From Chrysochromulina tobinii (Eukaryota), in contig JWZX01003208.1 of the NCBI GenBank assembly GCA_001275005.1, positions 1 to 62,309 on the forward strand: a stretch of 62,309 nt of DNA, in the 5' to 3' direction. A model generated the notes under the pieces. That model had not been told where the DNA came from. It was given only the letters and a program-made list of their open reading frames with translations, and did not search any database. The position numbers and the translations under genes were made by a program. Positions 20,188 through 56,688 of this stretch are shown piece after piece. Positions within the stretch are counted from its first letter, which is position 1; each line of letters opens with the position of its first letter.

Positions 20188-22649
20188 ATGGCGGAGCCGT
20201 GTCCCATTGGGACCCTGTGCCCACGGCGTGCATCTGCTACACTGATGCCTAATCGTGTCTTTGAAAGCCGTCGTGCTGCCAGGCGAGCGCTGCAGCGCAA
20301 AGCAGCGCTGCAGAGCGGTGCAGCGCCCAATTACACTCCCAGGACCGGTCTGCATCTGGACCCGCATGCGCTGGCGCGTCAGCAGTTGGAGGCGCACGTG
20401 GAATCCACGGCAGCCGCCGCCGTGAGCAGCTTGAGGGCGGCACTCGCGCAAGGGACTGCAAGGCATGCTGCTGCCTCCCAGCCTCCCGATGGGCTGCGCG
20501 AGGCTCTCAGCCAAGACCCTGCGGTGGACGTGGACGAGGCCACGGCGGTGTGGGCGACCGTCTGGCGGCAGGAGGCGCGCCTGAGCGCGGGCGGGCTGAC
20601 TCGACAGGCCAAGCGAGGATGGACTCCGGACGGGCGGTTCCCGAGCGCCTCAGACACCGGCTTTGCGACGCTCTGTGAGCGCTTCGGCCTCGAGGCGCAG
20701 GCGCGGCGGCAGAAGGCGTGGGTGGCCGGCACGGCCCGCCCACGGCGAGTGCTGGCGCTGGCGAATCCGACGGCCCATGAGGGGCTCGCGTGGTGGGTCG
20801 CTCGGGTGGCGGCGGGCATGCTCTGGGTGGCCGGCCGTGACAATCACACCGCCCTCACGATCGGGTACTCGGCGCACGACGTCGAGGATGTACTCAACGG
20901 AGCGATCAGGCCGCGCGGACTCGGCGGCGACCTCGCCAGGGCCATGCGACCTCCCGAGGCGTCATCGGCCTCCCTTGACTGGACGCTCGAGGGCGGCGGC
21001 GCGGCGCTGCTCGCCGGCTGCCACGCGCGCACACGAACGGAGACATGCACCCTGCTACGCGATCGGGTGGACGGCGCCGAGAATCTCGAGCTATCTCGGG
21101 AGCAAGCTCGGCACGGAGGCATCAACATGCTGCTCGCCCGCAACCTGTTCAACATCGGCAGGTGCAGCCGCGAAGGGGTCCGCTTCCTCCGCGCCGCATA
21201 CGGCGACCGTTGGGACCAGTCCCGCGCCGTCCTGAGCGCTCGCGCCAACGCGTCCTCGCCGCCTCCTTCGCTCGAGAAGCGCTTGCGCTCGTCGTTTGCG
21301 CTCGCGGCGGCTTGCTCTCTCCAAGCGAGCCTCGGGCCCGCCCCGTCACTGCACCTCTACGTGGCGAACAATCTCGAGCAATCTCGCGGGGGCTCCCACT
21401 CGGCCCCCCTCAGCACTGCCGTCCACCCTTCCTATGGAGCGATTCGAACGGCCCTGCGCGATGCCGCGACGCTCTCGATTGGCATCTACGTGCGCACGCT
21501 CGCGTCCGAGATCCCCGGAGGCTCAGACTCGGAGGCTCGTCGCCGCTTGGGCTTCAGGCACTGGCCCGCGGCGGAACGCTCCGATGACCTTCGGATGGCC
21601 TCTAGACCTCGGATTGTCTGCCTCATCAGTCCGATGACCTTCCGATGACCTTCGGATGACCTCTGATTGTCTGCCTCATCAGTCCGATGACCTTCGGATG
21701 GCCTCTGATGACCTCTGATTGTCTGCCTCATCAGTCCGATGACCTTCGGATGGCCTCTGATGACCTCTGATTGTCTGCCTCATCAGTCCGATGACCTTCA
21801 GATGGCCTATTTGTCGGATGGCCTCTGTTGACCTCTGATTGTCTGCCTCATCAGGCACTGGCCCTCGGCGGAACGCTCCCATTACCTTGGGATTGCGGCG
21901 TGCGCTCTCGCTCTTGAGACGAGGTGGGCTGCAGGCCTCGAGCGCGGATGGCGGCTGATTGCGCCTGATTGCGCCTGATTGCGCCTTGAGCTCATCAGCC
22001 CGGATCTCCCGCTGAGTGATCGATCGTGATGAACAGTCATTGACAGTGAGTGCGCCTCAATTGCGCCTGATTGCGGAGCAGGTGGGCGCCGGGGTTCGAG
22101 AACGTCGCGTGGTTCGTCGCGTCCGATTCTCCGAGCATCGTGAAGCAGCTCGTGATGGACTTTGACGAAACCCTCGGTGTGAACGGAACGCGCCCCCTCA
22201 CCGGTCGGCGCGCCGTGCTGCACACAGGCGCGGGGGGGCTCCACACACGTTTCGATTTAGATTGGGCGGACCCTACCTGGACGGCGCTCCGCACGGCGCG
22301 CAGCACGCCTGCGGCGGCCGGTGCGCGCCCGGCGACGGCTGGCAGTGTCAACGGCAGCGAGGTGCACGCTCTGCGAACTCGGGCACTCGTCGAAGGGTCG
22401 GCCGATTGGCTGCTCCTCTCCGAGGTGGACACGGCGGTCATCGGGACGATCCAGGACGGGAGTGGCGGGTTCACCTTTGGCACGACGGCGCTGCTGCGCG
22501 GCCTGCGCCTCCGAGGAGTTCGCGCCGCACCCTCATGGAACGACCTCGTGAACGCGGCCAATGCGAGGGATGCGCAGGCCATTGCGCAGCGTTGTGTTCG
22601 GAATGAAGAGGCTCGGATCGTGCCAGCGACGAAGTGTCGCGCTCGCTGA
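20188..22649 (+). CDS. Putative fucosyltransferase-like (GT-B) protein; introns 21558-21854 (GC-AG) and 21924-22081
   Basis: Splicing joins the ORFs in frame via a 69-nt exon; IGIYVR, WFVASDS, DWLLLS, FTFG resemble alpha-1,2/1,6-fucosyltransferase motifs I-III. Confidence 0.55.
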
Positions 22650-32822: not shown

Positions 32823-34767
32823 ATGGGCGTCTTGCCGTCGCCCGCCGGCCATCAGGCGGTCGGTGGCGGGAAGGACATCGCCTTCTTCGCGGGCGTCATC
32901 CTGCTCATCAACAACATCACAGGGCCGGGCGTACCTTCCTTGCCGAATCTGTTTGTCGAGGCTGGTTGGCTGCCGCCGACGGCATGCATCATCTGCATGT
33001 GGGTGGTGACGACCCTGAGCGCGTCCATATTTGCCGAAGCGATGGATCGCATCCCCGGCAATGAGGGGTTCAAGGGCCGCGTCGAATTCGTCTCCGTCGT
33101 CGACCATTATTTCGGACGGAGGATGTACGTTGCCAGTCAGATCGGCCTCAACGGCGCGCTCATGTCTCTCAACATCATTTCGGTAATCCTGTCAGCGCAG
33201 GTGATGGACGTGCTGATCTCGGCCCTGTTTGGTAAATCATGCGGCCTCAACCTCACGCCATTTGCCCTGTACAGCAATGCCACGTCCAGCGGCTCTCCCA
33301 TCCCCGGCTCGGATCGTGTCTTCTCATGCATCGACTCGGCTGACCTGAGCCACGGCAACGGCTGGGGCTGTCACATTGTGCTCTCGCTCGGGTACGTGCT
33401 CACCGCGGCGATGGCGATCCCTTGCGGCGCGTGGAACCTCGACGACAACATGATCATCCAAAAGGGCGCCTTTGGCCTCACCGCGTGCTGCTGGCTCATC
33501 TGGATCTTGGCCGCCCTCAGCATGGCCTCGGGTGGTGGCGGTGCTGGTGGCGCTGATGCTGGTGGTGGTGCTGCTGGTGGTGGTGCTGCTGCTGGTGACG
33601 TGGCGGCCTCCGCTGAGCTCGGCCTGCACGCCCTGGTCCGCTCCACCTCCTCGCGGCTGCCCGCGATCAACAACAACCCGCAGCTCGGCTCGGTAGCGGG
33701 CGTGCTCGGTGGCATCCTCTTCAACTTCGGGTTCGTCACCACAGTCCCCTCGTGGCTCGAGATGGCATGCAAGTGCTCACCACGGCGCCATCCCCCCCCT
33801 TTCCCACAGGTTCGTCACCACGGTCCCCTCGTGGCTCAATGAGAAGCTACCGGGCGTGCCCATCAATCGGGCACTCTGGCTCGCGACCACGTTCAGCGCG
33901 CTGCTCTTCGTGGCCATCGGCTTCACGGCCGCTCTGGTCTTCTCCGATGTGCTGCAAGGGCCGGTCACAGCGACGTGCGCGCGCCAGCTCGAGGACCCCA
34001 CCTTTGTCTGCGCCAACGACCTGCTGCAGTTGCTCTCGCAGCCGGCGACCGCGCCGTGGCAGTCGAGCCGGGCGGCAACGACCCTGCTGCAGGCCTCCGT
34101 CTATTGCTTCCCAATCTTCTCGATCGTCTCGTCGATCCCCGTCTTCTCGATCATCATCAAGTATAACCTCATCGAGAATGGCTTCTCGCGCGGCTTCGGC
34201 TTCGCGTGGGGCGTCATCTTCCCGTGGCTCGTCGGCTTCCCTCTGCTCTACATGCCCGACGTCCTCGGGCGCATCATCAACATTACCAGTCTCTTCTTTG
34301 TGTCCTTCTCCAGCTTTGTACTGCCACTCGCCCTCTACGTTGTCCTCCAGCGCAAGGCCGGCCACGTCCGCCTGCAGGCCCAGCCGGGCCTCGGCACCAC
34401 CCTCCTCGGCGGCACACACACGACGAGCACTGCCGAGCACTGCGCGCACACTGCCCCCTCCGCTGTGGGTGTGAATGTGAATGTGGGTGTGAATGTGAAT
34501 GTGACCCTCGCAATGGATGGTCGCGATGCAGGCTCCACCCCGGCGGCGGCGTCGGAGGACGAGGGAGGCTTCATGGCACTCGAGCAGCAAGGGCGCCACC
34601 ATGTGCTGCCACGCTCGTGGACGTGCTGCACGCCGCCCGTCCGCTCCGCGCTCGCGGTGGCCATCGCCATCCTCGTCACCGTGGGCTCGATGACTGCTCT
34701 CTACCTGACGATCACGCAGGGGACGTACGACGTCGATGCGAGCATTTGTGCGACGGTGGGCAACTGA
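32823..34767 (+). CDS. Amino acid transporter (Aa_trans/AAAP family); intron 33731-33809
   Basis: LLINNITGPGVPSLP...AGW; many TM segments; FNFG|FVTTVPSWLNEK after splicing. Confidence 0.85.
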
Positions 34768-34866
34768 ACGTAGAAGTTTAGAGTAAACATGACCTAACGC
34801 CGTCGTGGGCGTGTGAAGTTGCTGTGAGGATTTTTGCTCCTTCTCTCCCACCAACTCCTTGGAGCC

Positions 34867-37800
34867 ATGCCAATGATCGCTGGCCGCGCGGGCGGCGCGT
34901 CGCAGATCATGGCCGCGGTGCGCCGGAGGAGAAAAAAGTCGCCGCCTATCGCGGGCGAGAAGGAGGGCGCCACTCTCGGCCTGAAGTGGAAGGACGTGGG
35001 TGCCAAGCGGCCCACCGAGGGCAAGGAGCTGCAGAATGACGGCCTCTCAAAGGCGCTGCTGCGGCAGAATATGCGCGGCGTTCTGCACTACGTGTTCAGC
35101 GTCGAAGAATTCAAGGAGTTCCACGTTCGCGGCCTCCAACTGAACAGCTTCGTGCGCGCGGGCCCGAGTTACTACGTGCCCGACGAGACGCCCGAGCCCG
35201 AGGAGCTGAAGCCGTGGTTCGTGCGGTGGACGAACAACGTGTTCAACGTTTTGAATTCGCTCTCGCTGCAGGCGTGCCTGTACCTGGTCTTCGTGATCGT
35301 CTTTCAGAACCTCGCGGGCACAATGCGCCGCAGGGAGGAGTACTACATGACGATGCACGTGATGAACAAGTTCGTGACCACGCCATTCGACAGCCAGCAC
35401 AACACGTTCGAGACGATCCGACGCGCTTCGGACATTTATGAGTGGGGCAACCAGGTGCTCTGGCCGGGCTTCTTCGGCGACGCTGGCCCGTGCAACCCCT
35501 TCGTGGGTCTGCCCAACACGCTCCAGAATAAAGGATGCAACGACGACGCGTGGCCCGACGGCGACGGTCCACACCATCTGGTGGGTGCGTCACCGCTCGG
35601 GCTTGACGAGCTGGTGCGTAGGATGGACATGCTCGACTGGACGGAAGGCATCCTGATCAAGCAGGGCCGCGCGGCGCCGCAGAACTGCGCCGGACTGCAC
35701 CAGATCGGGCAGTGCTACCCGGAGCTCGAGAGAGGCATCTACACCTCGTCGACGCAGACGTACGGGTACGTTATGAGCCCGCCCGACGAGACCCTGATTG
35801 CGCCCGACGAGACCCTGATTGCGCCCGACGAGACCCTGATTACACCGGACGAGACCCTGATTGCGCCCGAGAGCTGGTTGTGAGTGCCACACCTGATGGC
35901 CTCCGATGGCCTCCCTCATCAGCTGGTTGTGAGTGCCACCTGATGGCCTCTGATGGCCTGCCTCATCAGGTACAACATCAGCCACCCCGACGAGGAGCCC
36001 GAGATACGATGGAGATACTTCTCAGCTCGGAATCTCGGCGGCAATCCCGGTGGTCAAACCTCGGCGGCGATCCCGTCGATGCGCCAGTACGATACGGACG
36101 GTTTCATTGCGGTCGTCATCCCCTTCTTCTCGGAGATCTATCTCGAGGAGCAGCACGATCTCGTCGATTGGGTCGTCGACTACCGTCTCCACTACGTCAA
36201 CGCGACCAACGGCAAGACGCCACGATACTATTGCGTGCGGCTCTCGCACAACGGGCGCGACATGCATCAGGTGCGTGCGAGACGATTGCGTGGCCATGAA
36301 TGCATATGACAATGACTCATGCATGCTATGCTATGCCTGCATGCATGCAGGTTTGCGACCCAACGACCAATCGGCGCGACGGCTCGGGCAAGATGACCGG
36401 CGTGGTGCGCGCTGCGGTGGAGAACATGTGGAATGACCTCAAGCGTGGCCACTATCTCGATTCGAGATCGCGCGTGCTCACGATCACGCTACAGTACGCC
36501 TTTCTCCTTGATTGCTTCTTGATTGCCTCTTGATTACATCTGGATTACAGTACGCCTTTCCCCTTGATTGCCTCTTGATTGCCTCTTGATTGCCTCTGGA
36601 TTACTTCTGGATTCCCTCTTGAGTGCCGCTGAGGAGCGCTGCTTGCGTCCTTCATCAGGCTCAACTCGAATCACGTGGGCGTGCGATCTCGCTTCACCCT
36701 GATGCTCGAGCTCACCGCCCTCGGAGCGATCTTCCCATCTTACGATGTCGAGACGCGCATCCTGGACGAGGCGGCCCTCGACGACATGCTGCTGTATGCG
36801 CAGATCTCGATGGTGATGGTCGCTTTCTTCGCCATGCTCGAGCTGATCGAGCTCATCCGCCAAGGGCCGATCGACTACGTGCAGAACTTTTGGCACCTGA
36901 TGGACTGGGGAAACTACATCATCTTCCTGCAGGTGTACTTCCAAGTTGTACAGGTACGTGCGGCTCTCGAGCACTCAGACTACCCTCTGATACCCCTCTG
37001 ACACCCCTCTGACACCCCCTGATAACCCTCTGATGGCCCTCTGACACCCCTCTGACACCCCTCTGATGCCCCTCTGATGCCCCTCTGATGCCCCTCTGAT
37101 GCCCCTCTGATGCCCCTCTTGTCGGCGTACCTGATTGCCTCCCTCATCAGGTACGCCAGACCATCGAGAATCCGGACTGCAGCTCGTTCCTGTGCGCCAA
37201 CATCGGCTACTTCGATGATTGGAAGGCGATGGGCGAGTACCGCATCTGCAAGCAGTACCTCGCCCTCTGCGTGTGCCTACAGCTCTTCAAGATCACCAAG
37301 TTCACCAGCCAGCTCGTGCCAAAGATGGGCCTCATGTCGAATGTGCTCCGGCACGCGGCCATCGACATCTTCTTCTTCGCGATCGTCTTCTTCAACTCCC
37401 TCCTCGCCTTCTCGACCATGCTCTACGTGCAGGTGCGCTGATGACCACTGATTACCATTGATGACCCCTGATGACCATGCTCTACGTGCAGATGGGAGTG
37501 CCTCTCTCTGAGTGCCTCTCGGCGTGCTTCTTTCGGAGTGCCTTTCGGATGGCCTTTCGGATGGCCTCTCGGATGGCATGCTGATTGCATCTGCCTGCTT
37601 TGTGTGTTCTGCGTGCAGCTTGGGCCGGTGATGGAAGACTTTTACGACCAAGGGCCCGCGATCGTGTCGCTCTTCCGAGCTCTCTTCGGAGATTTCGATC
37701 TGGATGAGGTGATGAACCAGTCCTCAGGCTACATGAACGCGCTCCTCTTCCTCGTCTACCTCTTTGTCGCGATCTTCATCATGCTCTCTCTCTTCCTCGC

Positions 37801-39060
37801 CATCCTGGCGGAGGCGCAGGCAGCCGTTCGAGAGCGCGAAGCAATCAAGAAGGTCGACGATCCCAACTTCAACGAGTTTGGCGTGATGCACACGTGCTGG
37901 GACTTCCTCGGCTTCGGCTATCGCAGGGTACGCCAGGCGCAGATTCGGGTCTGATTCGGGTCTGATTCGGGTCTGATTCGGGTCTGATTCGGGTCTGATT
38001 TGGTTCTGATTGGGGTCTGATTGCCCTCCTCATCAGGTGCGCCAGACCTTGTATCCCGAGGAGGAGGCCCCCGCATGCAAGTGCTCACCACGACGCCATC
38101 GCTTCTCTCCCACAGGTTCGTCAGACATTGTATCCCGAGGAGGAGGCTCCCGTCGCCGAAGCAGTGCCGGGGCCCGAGCCGCCTCCGACCGTGGACGCAA
38201 TGGTCAAAGATCTCCGGGGCGAGGTCAAGACCATCAGCGAGATTGTGAACACGCTCTGCAGAGAGGTCGTCTTGCTGCGCTCGAATGGCCTCGTCGGCAC
38301 TCCGGAAGGGTGGCTCGCGCCCGACGGCACGCTACGTGGCACCGGCGAGCATGGCGCCCGCGACGACGCCGATGGCGGCGTCGTGAGTGTGGAAGACGCC
38401 CGGCGCATGCGCCTCGGGATACACGCCGAGATACACGCCGAGATGGTGAGTGTGGAAGACGCCCGTCGCATGCGCCTGGTGGTCGAGGGGCTCGATGCGA
38501 AGCTCACCAAGAAGCTCGAACAGATCGACGAGCGTCTCGCGAAGCGTGAGAAGGTGGCCGCGATCGAGCGCAAGGGCCACTTACCGGCCGGTAAGTCGAG
38601 GCCGTCGCCCTTGGTGAACGAGCGCACTGCCGCGGGCGCGGCCAGTGACTTTCAGCCCATCGCCGCACAGAGTTGGTTGGCGGGTACTACGGCCGCAGGC
38701 GGTGGCGTGGCCGCAGGCGGTGGCGGCGGCGACCGCGGCGCTGGCGGCGGCGGCGGCAGAGGGTGTGGGGAGAGCCCCGGTGCGGCGCTGGCGGCGGCGG
38801 CAGCGGCACTGGCGGTGGCGGCCCCGCCGCTGCATGCACGCCCACGCTCGCCTGCCGACCCGCTGCATGCATGCTCTCGCTCGCCTGCCACTCGGCCGCC
38901 CGTCCACTTCTCACCTGAACTCCTCACTTCCACACCAAGCAGCCTGCCGAAGCTGCTTGGGCCACCGACACGCGGACAACTCTTGGGTGCCCCCGACGAG
39001 CACCTAGATCACGCGATGTCACAGTACAGTGGCAAGTCGATCGCCGGCTTGTCAGCGTAG
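34867..39060 (+). CDS. Polycystin (PKD2/TRPP)-like cation channel; introns 35766-35969, 36271-36350, 36494-36658, 36954-37150, 37433-37618, 37928-38115
   Basis: Large extracellular loop ending LKRGHYLDSRSR; WHLMDW; pore SLFRALFGDFD; S6 FIMLSLFLAIL; all six introns preserve the frame. Confidence 0.85.
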
Positions 39061-49885: not shown

Positions 49886-50700
49886 GAGACGAGTTCATCT
49901 CTCTCTCGAGATTGGCCGTGACTCACAAACGGTAAAAAGACACCGGGGGGAGCCGGGACAAACGGTACCGTGAAGTCTCACAAACGGTGCCGTGAAGTCT
50001 CACAAACGGTACCGTGAAGTCTCACGAGCGGTACCGTGAAGTCTCACAAACGGTACCGCCGCAAAGTCTCACAAACGGTACCGCGAAGTCTCACAAACGG
50101 TACCGTGAAGTCTCACAAACGGTACCGTGAAGTCTCACAAACGGTACCGTGAAGTCTCACAAGCGGTACCGTGAAGTCTCACAAACGGTACCGTGAAGTC
50201 TCAAAGCGGTACCGTGAAGTCTCACAAACGGTACCGTGAAGTCTCACAAACAATAACCGCGATACGGTAGTGGTCGAACTCATGTCTCACACACGGTAGT
50301 GGCCAAGTCTCACAAACGGTAGTGGTCGAACTCATGTCTCACAAACGGTAGTGGCCAAGTCTCACAAACGGTAGTGGTCGAACTCAAGTCTCACAAACGG
50401 TAGTGGCGAAAAGAACTCATGAAGTCTCACAAATGGTAGTGGTCGAACTAAAATCTCACAAATGGTCGTGGCCAAAAGAACCCAAGTCTCACAAACGTTC
50501 GCCGAAGTCTCACAAACTGAACCGGGAACTGGAGGACCGTGAAGTCTCACAAACGGTACCGCGCGTCTTTAGAAACTGCTTACCCGAAGTCTCACAAACG
50601 GTAGTGGTCGAACTGCGAAGTCTCACAAACGGTAGTGTTCGAACTCAAGTCTCACAAACGGAAGTGACGAACTGCGAAGTCTCACAAACGAACTCGTCTC
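49886..50700. mobile_element. Putative non-autonomous DNA transposon (MITE-like): 11-bp terminal inverted repeats around a satellite
   Basis: GAGACGAGTTC (49886-49896) and GAACTCGTCTC (50690-50700); no clean target-site duplication. Confidence 0.55.
49920..50690. repeat. Minisatellite, core GTCTCACAAACGGTA, about 29 copies (22-nt period in the first half)
   Basis: gtctcacaaacggtaccgtgaa units grading into ...gtggtcgaactc variants. Confidence 0.95.
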
Positions 50701-55421: not shown

Positions 55422-56688
55422 CTACTCGGCGCTCAGCACGCGCCACGACGAGGACGCGGGTGGCATGGCCTGCGCCACGCGCTCCGCCGTCTTGGGCGCC
55501 GCGCCGTGCAAGATGAACAAGAAGAGATCCCACAGGCTCTCCGCGTCCGCCGAGGGCGCCGTCCCGAGCTGCGCGCCGCCGCCACCGCCGGTGGCGGCCG
55601 CGGTGGCGGCGGCAGCTCGACTGCTCGCGCGCACCTGATGAGGGAAGCAATAGTTGGTCATCATTGGTCATCAGTGGTCATCAGCACACCGCGCTCGACT
55701 GCTCGCGCGCACCTGATGAGGGACGCCATCAGAGGCAATCAGAGCTCTTCGGCCATGGCACTCAACGGCTCGAGCGCACCTCGGCAAATTCCTCCGAGGC
55801 TGCTAGGATGATGGCTCCGGTGGCGGTCACGGCAAAGGTGGAGACGAGGTAGACCGCGGCGATGTCGAGCTTGAGTAGCCCCTCGGGCAAGGTGCTCAGG
55901 CCCGTCAGGTAGCGCGAGGGGAAGGACCACACGCCCTGCTGCTGCCCCACGCAGTCGATGCACACCGTCCACATCCCCGGCGGCAGCCAACTCGACACAA
56001 ATAACCGCCAGTGCGAGCGGAGATAGCGAGCTCCCAGGTTCCAAACGACCGCGAACACGGGCGCGAAAAAGGTGGCGATGAGCCCGAGGCACTTGTGATG
56101 GTCCTCGTCGCCCGCAAGCGCCGCCAACCCCGCGAGCGTCATCGCCGCCAGCACGGCATTGCCCGCGGCGCGCACCGAATCGGCCATTGGCGCTGGCGTG
56201 CCGTCGGGCGCGGCGGTGAGAGTCCACTCAGACATCTTGAGTGTCCAGAGCGCGGCCTTGATGACGTGGTGGAAGAGCCACAGGATCTCCTCGAGCGGCA
56301 GCAGCGTCGCCGCACCCAGCCCGGTCACCTTCGCGGGATTGAAGGTCCAGATGCCAATCTGTGCCCCGACCGAATCCCAGACAAAGGCCTGACCGACGGC
56401 GATGGTGAGGATGAAGGCGAGGTAGGCGAAAGAGGCGGTGGTTTTCAGCGGGTCGCGCTCGTCGTTGAGCATCGTTGGCTTTCCGGCCGTGAGCAGCCAG
56501 AGCGTGGGCAAGAGCAGGAAGCCGTGCAGGTCCCAGTAGGAGAGCTCGAGGCCTCCACTCGCCACGAAGCCGGGGCCGTCCCAGCCGGACGAGCCGAATG
56601 CGACGCAGGTGGGTGGCAGCGTGCGCGGGGCCATGGACAAGCCGGCCGTGGCCATCGGCGCGAGCGAAGGAAATCTCAAGATGCGCAT
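55422..56688 (-). CDS. CrtYcd/CarR-type membrane lycopene cyclase domain protein; intron 55635-55779
   Basis: Two hydrophobic repeats: WDSVGAQIGIWTF...LPLEE and IDCVGQQQGVWSF. Confidence 0.7.

Follow-up and report, generated by a model that had tools for sequence, protein, structure and literature searches.

Back-to-back introns of two repeat families in a channel gene of Chrysochromulina tobinii: probable separate gains at one site and their possible removal in two cuts

The intron between exons 6 and 7 of a polycystin/TRP-like channel gene in Chrysochromulina tobinii consists of a family-B unit at 37928-38036 (109 nt) that directly adjoins a family-A unit at 38037-38115 (79 nt), with a zero-length exon between them and a total intron length of 109 + 79 = 188 nt. 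Positions are those of the window, by which is meant the whole 62,309-nt stretch of contig JWZX01003208.1 that was analysed. The data are read as two separate gains at one site that are likely removed in two cuts, and a probability of about 50% is attached to this reading. The stack is regarded as a by-product of a lineage-wide mode of intron gain by long duplication, and no regulatory role is proposed for it.

Structure of the stack and its mRNA

The splice signals can be followed in the sequence as GT at 37928-9, a CCTCATCAG end at 38036, GT at 38037-8, AG at 38114-5 and exon again from 38116 (Table 1). An earlier note on this DNA had described back-to-back introns with a zero-length exon at 38036/38037, and this description was borne out, as the coordinates are correct in the sequence and both units are missing from mature RNA. 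The GT at 38037, which the earlier note had assigned to family A, does directly follow the B acceptor, but it belongs to a duplicated exon start, and the family-A repeat begins near 38074. Three copies of the exon start had also been proposed (37928, 38037 and 38116). Copies 2 and 3 are well founded, with 4 mismatches over 37 nt, a similarity far above chance, and all of the mismatches at third codon positions. Copy 1 is weaker than had been implied: it is 9 nt long, its first 6 nt are the lineage donor consensus, and among 68 unrelated donors, 2 fit the 9-mer of copy 2 equally well. All 4 differences between copies 2 and 3 (38037-38073 and 38116-38152) are synonymous, and it was noticed post hoc that the exon copy has the rarer, A/T-ending codon each time. 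Three synonymous changes and no other change between intron copy and exon were seen in 1 of 49 other loci. Since relatives start with GTG at the exon-7 copy, at least one of the changes between copies 2 and 3 is on the exon side. The B and A inserts have a longest local match of at most 7 nt; being unrelated, they do not represent one tandem duplication.

Table 1. Coordinates of the stacked introns, their host gene and comparable introns of the window
Feature	Position	Strand	Basis
Host gene, 7 exons, 1057-aa polycystin/TRP-like cation channel	34867..39060	+	open spliced frame, domain matches, RNA contig
Exon 6, upstream of the stack	37619..37927	+	RNA contigs, domain search
Unit B, 109 nt, with a GT donor (8.1 bits), an array of 11-bp tandem repeats, CTGAT at -17 and a CCTCATCAG acceptor	37928..38036	+	sequence and donor scoring
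Exon-start copy 1, 9 nt, weakly supported, coincides in part with the donor consensus	37928..37936	+	sequence comparison
11-bp tandem repeat, 7.4 copies, within unit B	37942..38022	+	repeat search
Junction CAG/GTGCGC: B acceptor and, immediately after it, a strong donor (9.9 bits here, 8.3 bits when next to exon 6)	38034..38042	+	sequence, donor scoring
Exon-start copy 2, 37 nt, 5' part of unit A and source of its GT	38037..38073	+	4 mismatches to copy 3
3' core of family A, 42 nt, made up of the conserved repeat with a branch-like CTCAC at 38084-38088, a run of pyrimidines and the CAG acceptor	38074..38115	+	acceptor used in RNA
Exon-start copy 3, first 37 nt of exon 7, version present in mRNA	38116..38152	+	RNA joint
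Exon 7, last exon	38116..39060	+	RNA joint
Stand-alone family-A intron, 79 nt: 28-nt exon-start copy plus core	33731..33809	+	sequence; no joint among the RNA matches listed
Second pair in the window, B-type 67 nt and B-type 78 nt	55635..55779	-	sequence only

RNA was read as assembled contigs from four (X15-X18) of the six RNA runs that contain the region; rare forms and intermediates are invisible in such contigs. The joint 37927/38116 was found in two of the four runs: in X15, where a 2758-nt record (depth 9.8) joins 37926 to 38115, i.e. 37927/38116, and in X16, in a 1904-nt record (depth 14). In both, 188 nt from GT to AG are skipped with 0 other letters. The A acceptor at 38115 is used in 2/4 runs, and no contig showed unit A excised from its own donor. 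The contigs of X17 are broken across the joint, and an X18 contig (37760-37935) stops 8 nt inside unit B, with coverage again from 38224; the end at 37935 may be unspliced RNA, DNA or a GC donor at 37937. Use of that GC donor, with copy 1 as exon, was rejected as the main form: the contigs that span the joint contain copy 3, with 0 other letters, and the GC donor reaches 0.9 bits under a matrix built on few GC donors. No splicing intermediate was seen: no RNA contig covers 38007-38101 in X16, X17 or X18 and X15 has depth 0 at 38098-38108, which is weak evidence against removal in two cuts, as rare forms drop out of contigs. Neither copy 2 nor the A core of the stack locus occurs in any RNA contig of X16, X17 and X18. 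RNA contigs of 41 nt at 37953-38000, which fall within the multi-copy tandem repeat, were excluded from the counts. The main mRNA is without both units and uses copy 3, and no exon sequence of the zero-length exon is retained in it. When the units were removed in silico, the frame was open with both units out. Removal of B only gave a frameshift with a stop near 38547, 170 codons past the junction, and removal of A only, or of neither unit, gave an immediate stop.

The junction between the units is supported by DNA run X14, in which overlapping contigs (37971-38034, 38012-38102 and 38074 onward) chain across it at a single-copy depth of 39-50. The bridging contig 38012-38102 has a depth of 50 and 0 other letters; its overlap on the B side is 25 letters, below the 31-letter rule, and the support is that of a contig chain and not of one spanning record. 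No alternative DNA joint at the B/A junction is listed in the X14 contigs. The junction is not an assembly artefact.

Construction of the introns and occurrence of other stacks

Many introns of the window open with a copy of the start of the next exon. When metagenome contigs were searched with the family-A core, at least 137 loci at unrelated gene positions were found, drawn from several assemblies that may span strains or species, and 4 A-like units lie within the window. Of 168 unique A cores, 134 were examined; the rest were 14 that touched an edge and 20 that lacked an acceptor within 48 nt. An exon-start copy was present in 69/134 of the examined cores compared with 10/665 mismatched controls, and it was below threshold in 65/134; copies shorter than 9 nt are hidden by the score threshold. 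In the 69 introns with a copy, the copy is 9-53 nt long (median 27), with 0-34 nt of filler behind it; the insert measures 39-73 nt and the whole intron 57-94 nt (median 78). Sequence similarity is confined to the 3' 40-50 nt of the family. The donor is GT in 66 and GC in 3 of these introns, and the exon start bears the same donor-like hexamer. Matches of at least 6 nt between the two ends, as expected of terminal inverted repeats, were found in 2/69 introns against 4% in shuffles. These data show that a family-A intron is a copy of the first 9-53 nt of the next exon plus a family 3' end of about 50 nt. B-type ends have the same build in 10/30 cases compared with 11/582 controls. An Rfam search gave one chance match (E 0.51, far under its cut-off).

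When the copies were compared with their exons at 49 loci (19 loci with ambiguous frame were dropped, and the stack locus itself, L042, was excluded), 34 of 59 mismatches were at third codon positions (p = 0.30 against 0.5). This fits a neutral intron copy beside a constrained exon. The possibility that intron copies are relics of diverged alleles, suggested by their synonymous-looking mismatches, was rejected on the same count.

The proposed model is that a 3' core with branch site, pyrimidines and AG would be inserted together with a target duplication of variable length, and that the GT of the duplicate would become the donor of the new intron. Since each gain copies the exon start, a donor-like site is left right behind the acceptor, and the exon behind such an intron, starting as AG/GT plus a donor-like hexamer, would be a ready site for the next insertion. 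AG/GT stacks would then arise at chance rate without targeting. Of 55 donor-like GTs in exons, 5 lie at exon starts, as expected if exon starts behind such introns are donor-like, although this figure comes from the exons of two genes only. Among the 68 other A introns, 6 clear and 3 variant cases abut an upstream intron end. The clear cases are L015, L030, L038, L061, L063 and L120, of which L038 and L061 are cross-family as at the stack locus; the variant cases are L010 and L032 (tandem units) and L121 (AG from a copied exon end). When 6/68 and 9/68 were compared with the chance figure of 5/55, Fisher tests gave p = 1.0 and 0.57. The abutting rate does not differ from the chance rate, and targeted insertion at acceptors is not needed to account for it.

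The second pair in the window, at 55635-55779, also has three exon-start copies, of which copy 2 is identical to the exon over 20 nt and copy 1 is decayed. Stacks with A followed by B occur at L054 and L081. At L103, L105 and L116 a repeat-type intron end lies 5-8 nt upstream of the A-intron donor, which leaves possible micro-exons. That in this long-duplication gain each new exon start is the next landing site, with about 1 in 10 A introns standing in an AG/GT stack that is removed piecewise, is a tentative generalization on which the odds are on the unfavorable side. If the piecewise reading is true, the genome would hold a genome-wide, datable source of recursive sites within short introns, with young and old, same-family and cross-family examples together.

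Mode of removal and order of gain

Removal in two cuts could take either of two routes. With B removed first, the donor would be regenerated on exon 6; with A removed first, 38037-38115 would go out and B would be left beside exon 7. The earlier note had held that finding only the single long splice would speak against recursive splicing. Since one-step, B-first and A-first removal yield identical mRNA, a test on the net joint is too strict, and because the A-first route leaves a 38036/38116 junction, the check it had proposed for a 37927/38037 intermediate would alone miss that route.

Judged from the splice signals, removal in two steps is plausible at roughly even odds. The B acceptor has CTGAT at -17 and G at +1 and is of the same type as the acceptors at 35969 and 37150, which are used in RNA, and the three internal CAGs that are skipped (introns 1, 3 and 5) have no G at +1. 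For the donor at 38037, the score is 9.9 bits as it stands, among the highest in the gene, and would be 8.3 bits after removal of B, compared with a median of 6.9. The length of unit A (79 nt) is about the family median (78 nt). Given the origin proposed here, the spliceosome is predicted, by a slight preference, to handle the two units (109 and 79 nt) as separate, normal introns. The premise that small introns are the first to be paired is drawn from Lipomyces (PMC7138796) and may hold for Chrysochromulina by analogy.

The strongest competitor has the same origin and takes the stack as one ordinary 188-nt intron that is cut in one step, with the internal AG/GT as a silent leftover. Its chance is considerable, though below even. 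The 188-nt joint is the only one seen in RNA, and this length is usual for the gene, in which 5/6 introns are 165-204 nt and intron 4 (197 nt) is spliced without an internal AG. Also, a B-type CCTCATCAG acceptor at 35922 is skipped in the RNA of intron 1, and at L024 the first acceptor of a stack reads CAC and is lost, so some stacks need no internal site. The internal donors of abutting pairs are not stronger than those of stand-alone introns (p = 0.76), and some are poor (L032, L063). However, the B acceptor at this locus is intact and, with its G at +1, differs from the skipped ones, the internal donor is strong, and copy 2 still reads the same peptide in P0084, a relative whose exon 7 differs at 5 of its first 88 residues. 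A separate suggestion, that RNA structure hides the B acceptor, was rejected as folding there is unremarkable (z = 0.39). If two cuts are made, the short introns of this lineage would provide a large number of natural ratchet points that can be dated, in an alga that can be cultured. If one cut is made, the case would still explain many composite introns of the lineage and would warn annotators that AG/GT stacks are by-products and not regulated isoforms.

Two separate gains leave the order to be considered, and here it is fairly probable that B came first and that A entered later at the acceptor of B. Only 0-1 nt separate the downstream copy from its exon in 6/6 clear parallel cases, and such near-identity points to a later gain at an existing acceptor; the visible upstream copies (L038, L061 and window 55779) are more decayed than the downstream ones. 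The claim of the earlier note that the second insertion took place at an existing acceptor thus fits the pattern of the lineage, but L121 shows the opposite order and the stack locus does not itself fix it; rooting its three exon-start copies takes an outgroup. The reverse order, in which A was first and B was inserted at the donor of A with a 9-nt duplication, is very improbable as a complete account, though on the order alone it keeps a substantial minority share. It would agree with copy 1 being nearer to copy 2 (1/9 differ) than to copy 3 (2/9 differ), with copy 2 differing from the exon at 4/37 positions and so being more diverged than in the six parallel cases, and with the order seen at L121 and in the A-then-B stacks, and it runs against the near-identical downstream and decayed upstream copies elsewhere.

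The relatives of the gene were compared as predicted ORFs, with unit lengths inferred from translations. The start of unit B follows exon 6 in 11/11 new members that have exon 6, among the matches listed (15 of 41). Five related exon-7 ORFs begin inside an A core that is one base longer, so that unit A is predicted at 80 nt, and in P0084 copy 2, the A core and exon 7 are in one frame, with unit A at 81 nt (in frame). ORFs that start from the exon-7 GTG (clusters 2-5) are uninformative on the presence of unit A. When orthologous DNA of the stack locus was sought, genome contigs gave one low-complexity bacterial match, viral contigs gave none and the A core gave one edge locus; no intron-less or single-unit allele was found as DNA in genome or viral contigs.

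These lengths bear on regulated alternative 3' sites. On that reading, splicing to the AG at 38036 would lengthen the channel mRNA by 79 nt and shift its frame, and the product would tune expression or the C-terminus. In its favor, the B acceptor has the look of a functional site, splicing of B only is possible on paper, and the break of X17 at the joint and the X18 contig end leave room for minor forms. However, copy 2 and the A core are missing from the contigs of three runs, no 79-nt-longer form was found in the RNA contigs of any of the four (contigs being weak evidence for absence), and as unit A is 79 nt here and predicted at 80 or 81 nt in relatives, the 79-nt frameshift is not conserved. 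The alternative 3' sites with a 79-nt frameshift offered in the earlier note are thus not supported: a regulated frameshift isoform is unlikely, this version of it strongly so, the mRNA being a plain 188-nt splice product, and the protein-level effect of the stack at this single locus is nil. An artefact from collapsed alleles, or one tandem duplication across an intron-exon boundary, has a negligible chance, for although DNA contigs break in the tandem repeat and same-family stacks such as L015 and L032 may be simple duplications, the contigs here chain at single-copy depth, the two inserts are unrelated, and in many related ORF records exon 6 runs into B and exon 7 is preceded by A.

Comparison with other systems and further features of the gene

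Family A shares with introners the many similar copies and a splice site recruited from a target duplication. In Symbiodinium and Polarella, introner-like elements of classes 4/5 and 6/8/10 are described as carrying the 3' site and taking the 5' site from the target duplication (10.1101/2020.10.14.339549, PMC9860276), and acceptor-carrying elements of dinoflagellates are reported with 4-8-nt duplications (10.1101/2020.10.14.339549, PMC9860276, PMC12130899). Family A resembles these in being a repeated family with the acceptor in the repeat, the donor from duplicated exon and an unchanged mRNA length. It differs from them in that their duplications are fixed at 4 or 8 nt whereas those of family A are variable at 9-53 nt with 0-34 nt of filler, and in that Symbiodinium introners have terminal inverted repeats and family A is without inverted ends. 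The fixed 3-9-nt duplication of TIR/MITE-type introners is likewise at variance with 9-53 nt (median 27). A figure in PMC9860276 shows a Chrysochromulina introner of the opposite polarity to family A, with a duplication of 4 bp and the 5' site carried by the element. Among openly accessible papers, supplementary introner lists aside, no report was found of repeat-family introns standing in stacks, or of long duplications of exon starts, in haptophytes, and haptophytes are not mentioned in the main text of PMC12130899.

At 38036/38037 a 3' splice site is immediately followed by a 5' splice site, the arrangement of a zero-length exon. Recursive splicing at such sites is described for Drosophila ratchet points and human RS-sites in long introns (PMC5126111) and for the 336-nt intron of SPNCRNA.445 in S. 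pombe (10.1101/226894), and as in these cases a donor would be restored once the first unit is out. The SPNCRNA.445 intron is short, as is the stack. However, intermediates have been measured in Drosophila, human and S. pombe, whereas the stack is read from sequence and the net mRNA joint. Also, its units of 109 and 79 nt are derived from repeat families, unlike those sites, and its internal site may be conserved, to judge from predicted ORFs. The origin of recursive splice sites is unexplained in the papers cited here, and at this locus a route is visible in the sequence.

Intron gain has been described by tandem duplication across an intron-exon boundary in a potato RdRp gene (PMC4974935) and by staggered break repair in Daphnia, with repeat footprints and repeated gains at one site (PMC4202315). 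The stack is similar to both in having a donor from former exon, 3' signals from an existing intron end and a direct-repeat footprint. Its 3' end comes from a dispersed family and not from a neighbouring intron, unlike in potato RdRp and Daphnia, and the parallel gains of Daphnia are on separate alleles whereas here they are stacked on one. In Lipomyces, stwintrons and complex intervening sequences have been described, for which pairing over the smallest intron is invoked (PMC7138796). These share with the stack two U2 intron units at one position that are excised in one or two reactions. However, the inner intron of a stwintron is nested, interrupting or abutting the outer donor, whereas no donor, branch or acceptor element is interrupted here and both units are complete and in series.

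Matches to PKD_channel or Ion_trans were obtained on 3/5 exon pieces of the channel gene. RNA record 10 of X15 aligns along its exons, exon 3 being deduced from a gap of 146 nt among the aligned pieces. A homologue with 76% over exon 5 falls into one cluster with a protein that bears the name Chrysochromulina rotalis; the host is accordingly a haptophyte. The exon-6 read-through ORFs P0040, P0042, P0044, P0049 and P0050 carry the source label 'preprotein translocase subunit SecG', which is an error of prokaryotic gene calling. In intron 1 (35766-35969, +), two CCTCATCAG ends stand in a 47-bp tandem and RNA uses the distal one; the skipped end at 35922 has CCGAT at -17 and C at +1. In intron 4, a decayed exon-start copy (36954-36983) reads AAL where the exon (37151-37180) reads QTI and homologues read AAL, AAI or DAI, so the copy looks closer to the ancestral state than its exon.

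Within exon 7, a 63-nt in-frame duplication at 38383-38445 (+) has a GATACACGCCGA repeat and is intron-like with a GTGAGT donor, yet it is retained in mRNA, being contiguous in the RNA of X15, X16 and X17 and adding 21 residues. It is read as an insertion of the family-A/B build that was retained in the coding sequence. As clusters 3-5 of the relatives are without it, such duplications are derived insertions, and unit A is probably the older of the two. The neighbouring membrane-protein gene (32826-34768, +), amino-acid-transporter-like by eye, has one stand-alone family-A intron, and a putative intron at 21558-21854 (+) has a 52-bp tandem with four internal CCTCATCAG ends ahead of the last one. 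The whole window is eukaryotic and rich in GC, and an AT-richer array of 22- to 31-bp tandem repeats of about 730 bp lies at 49958-50690.
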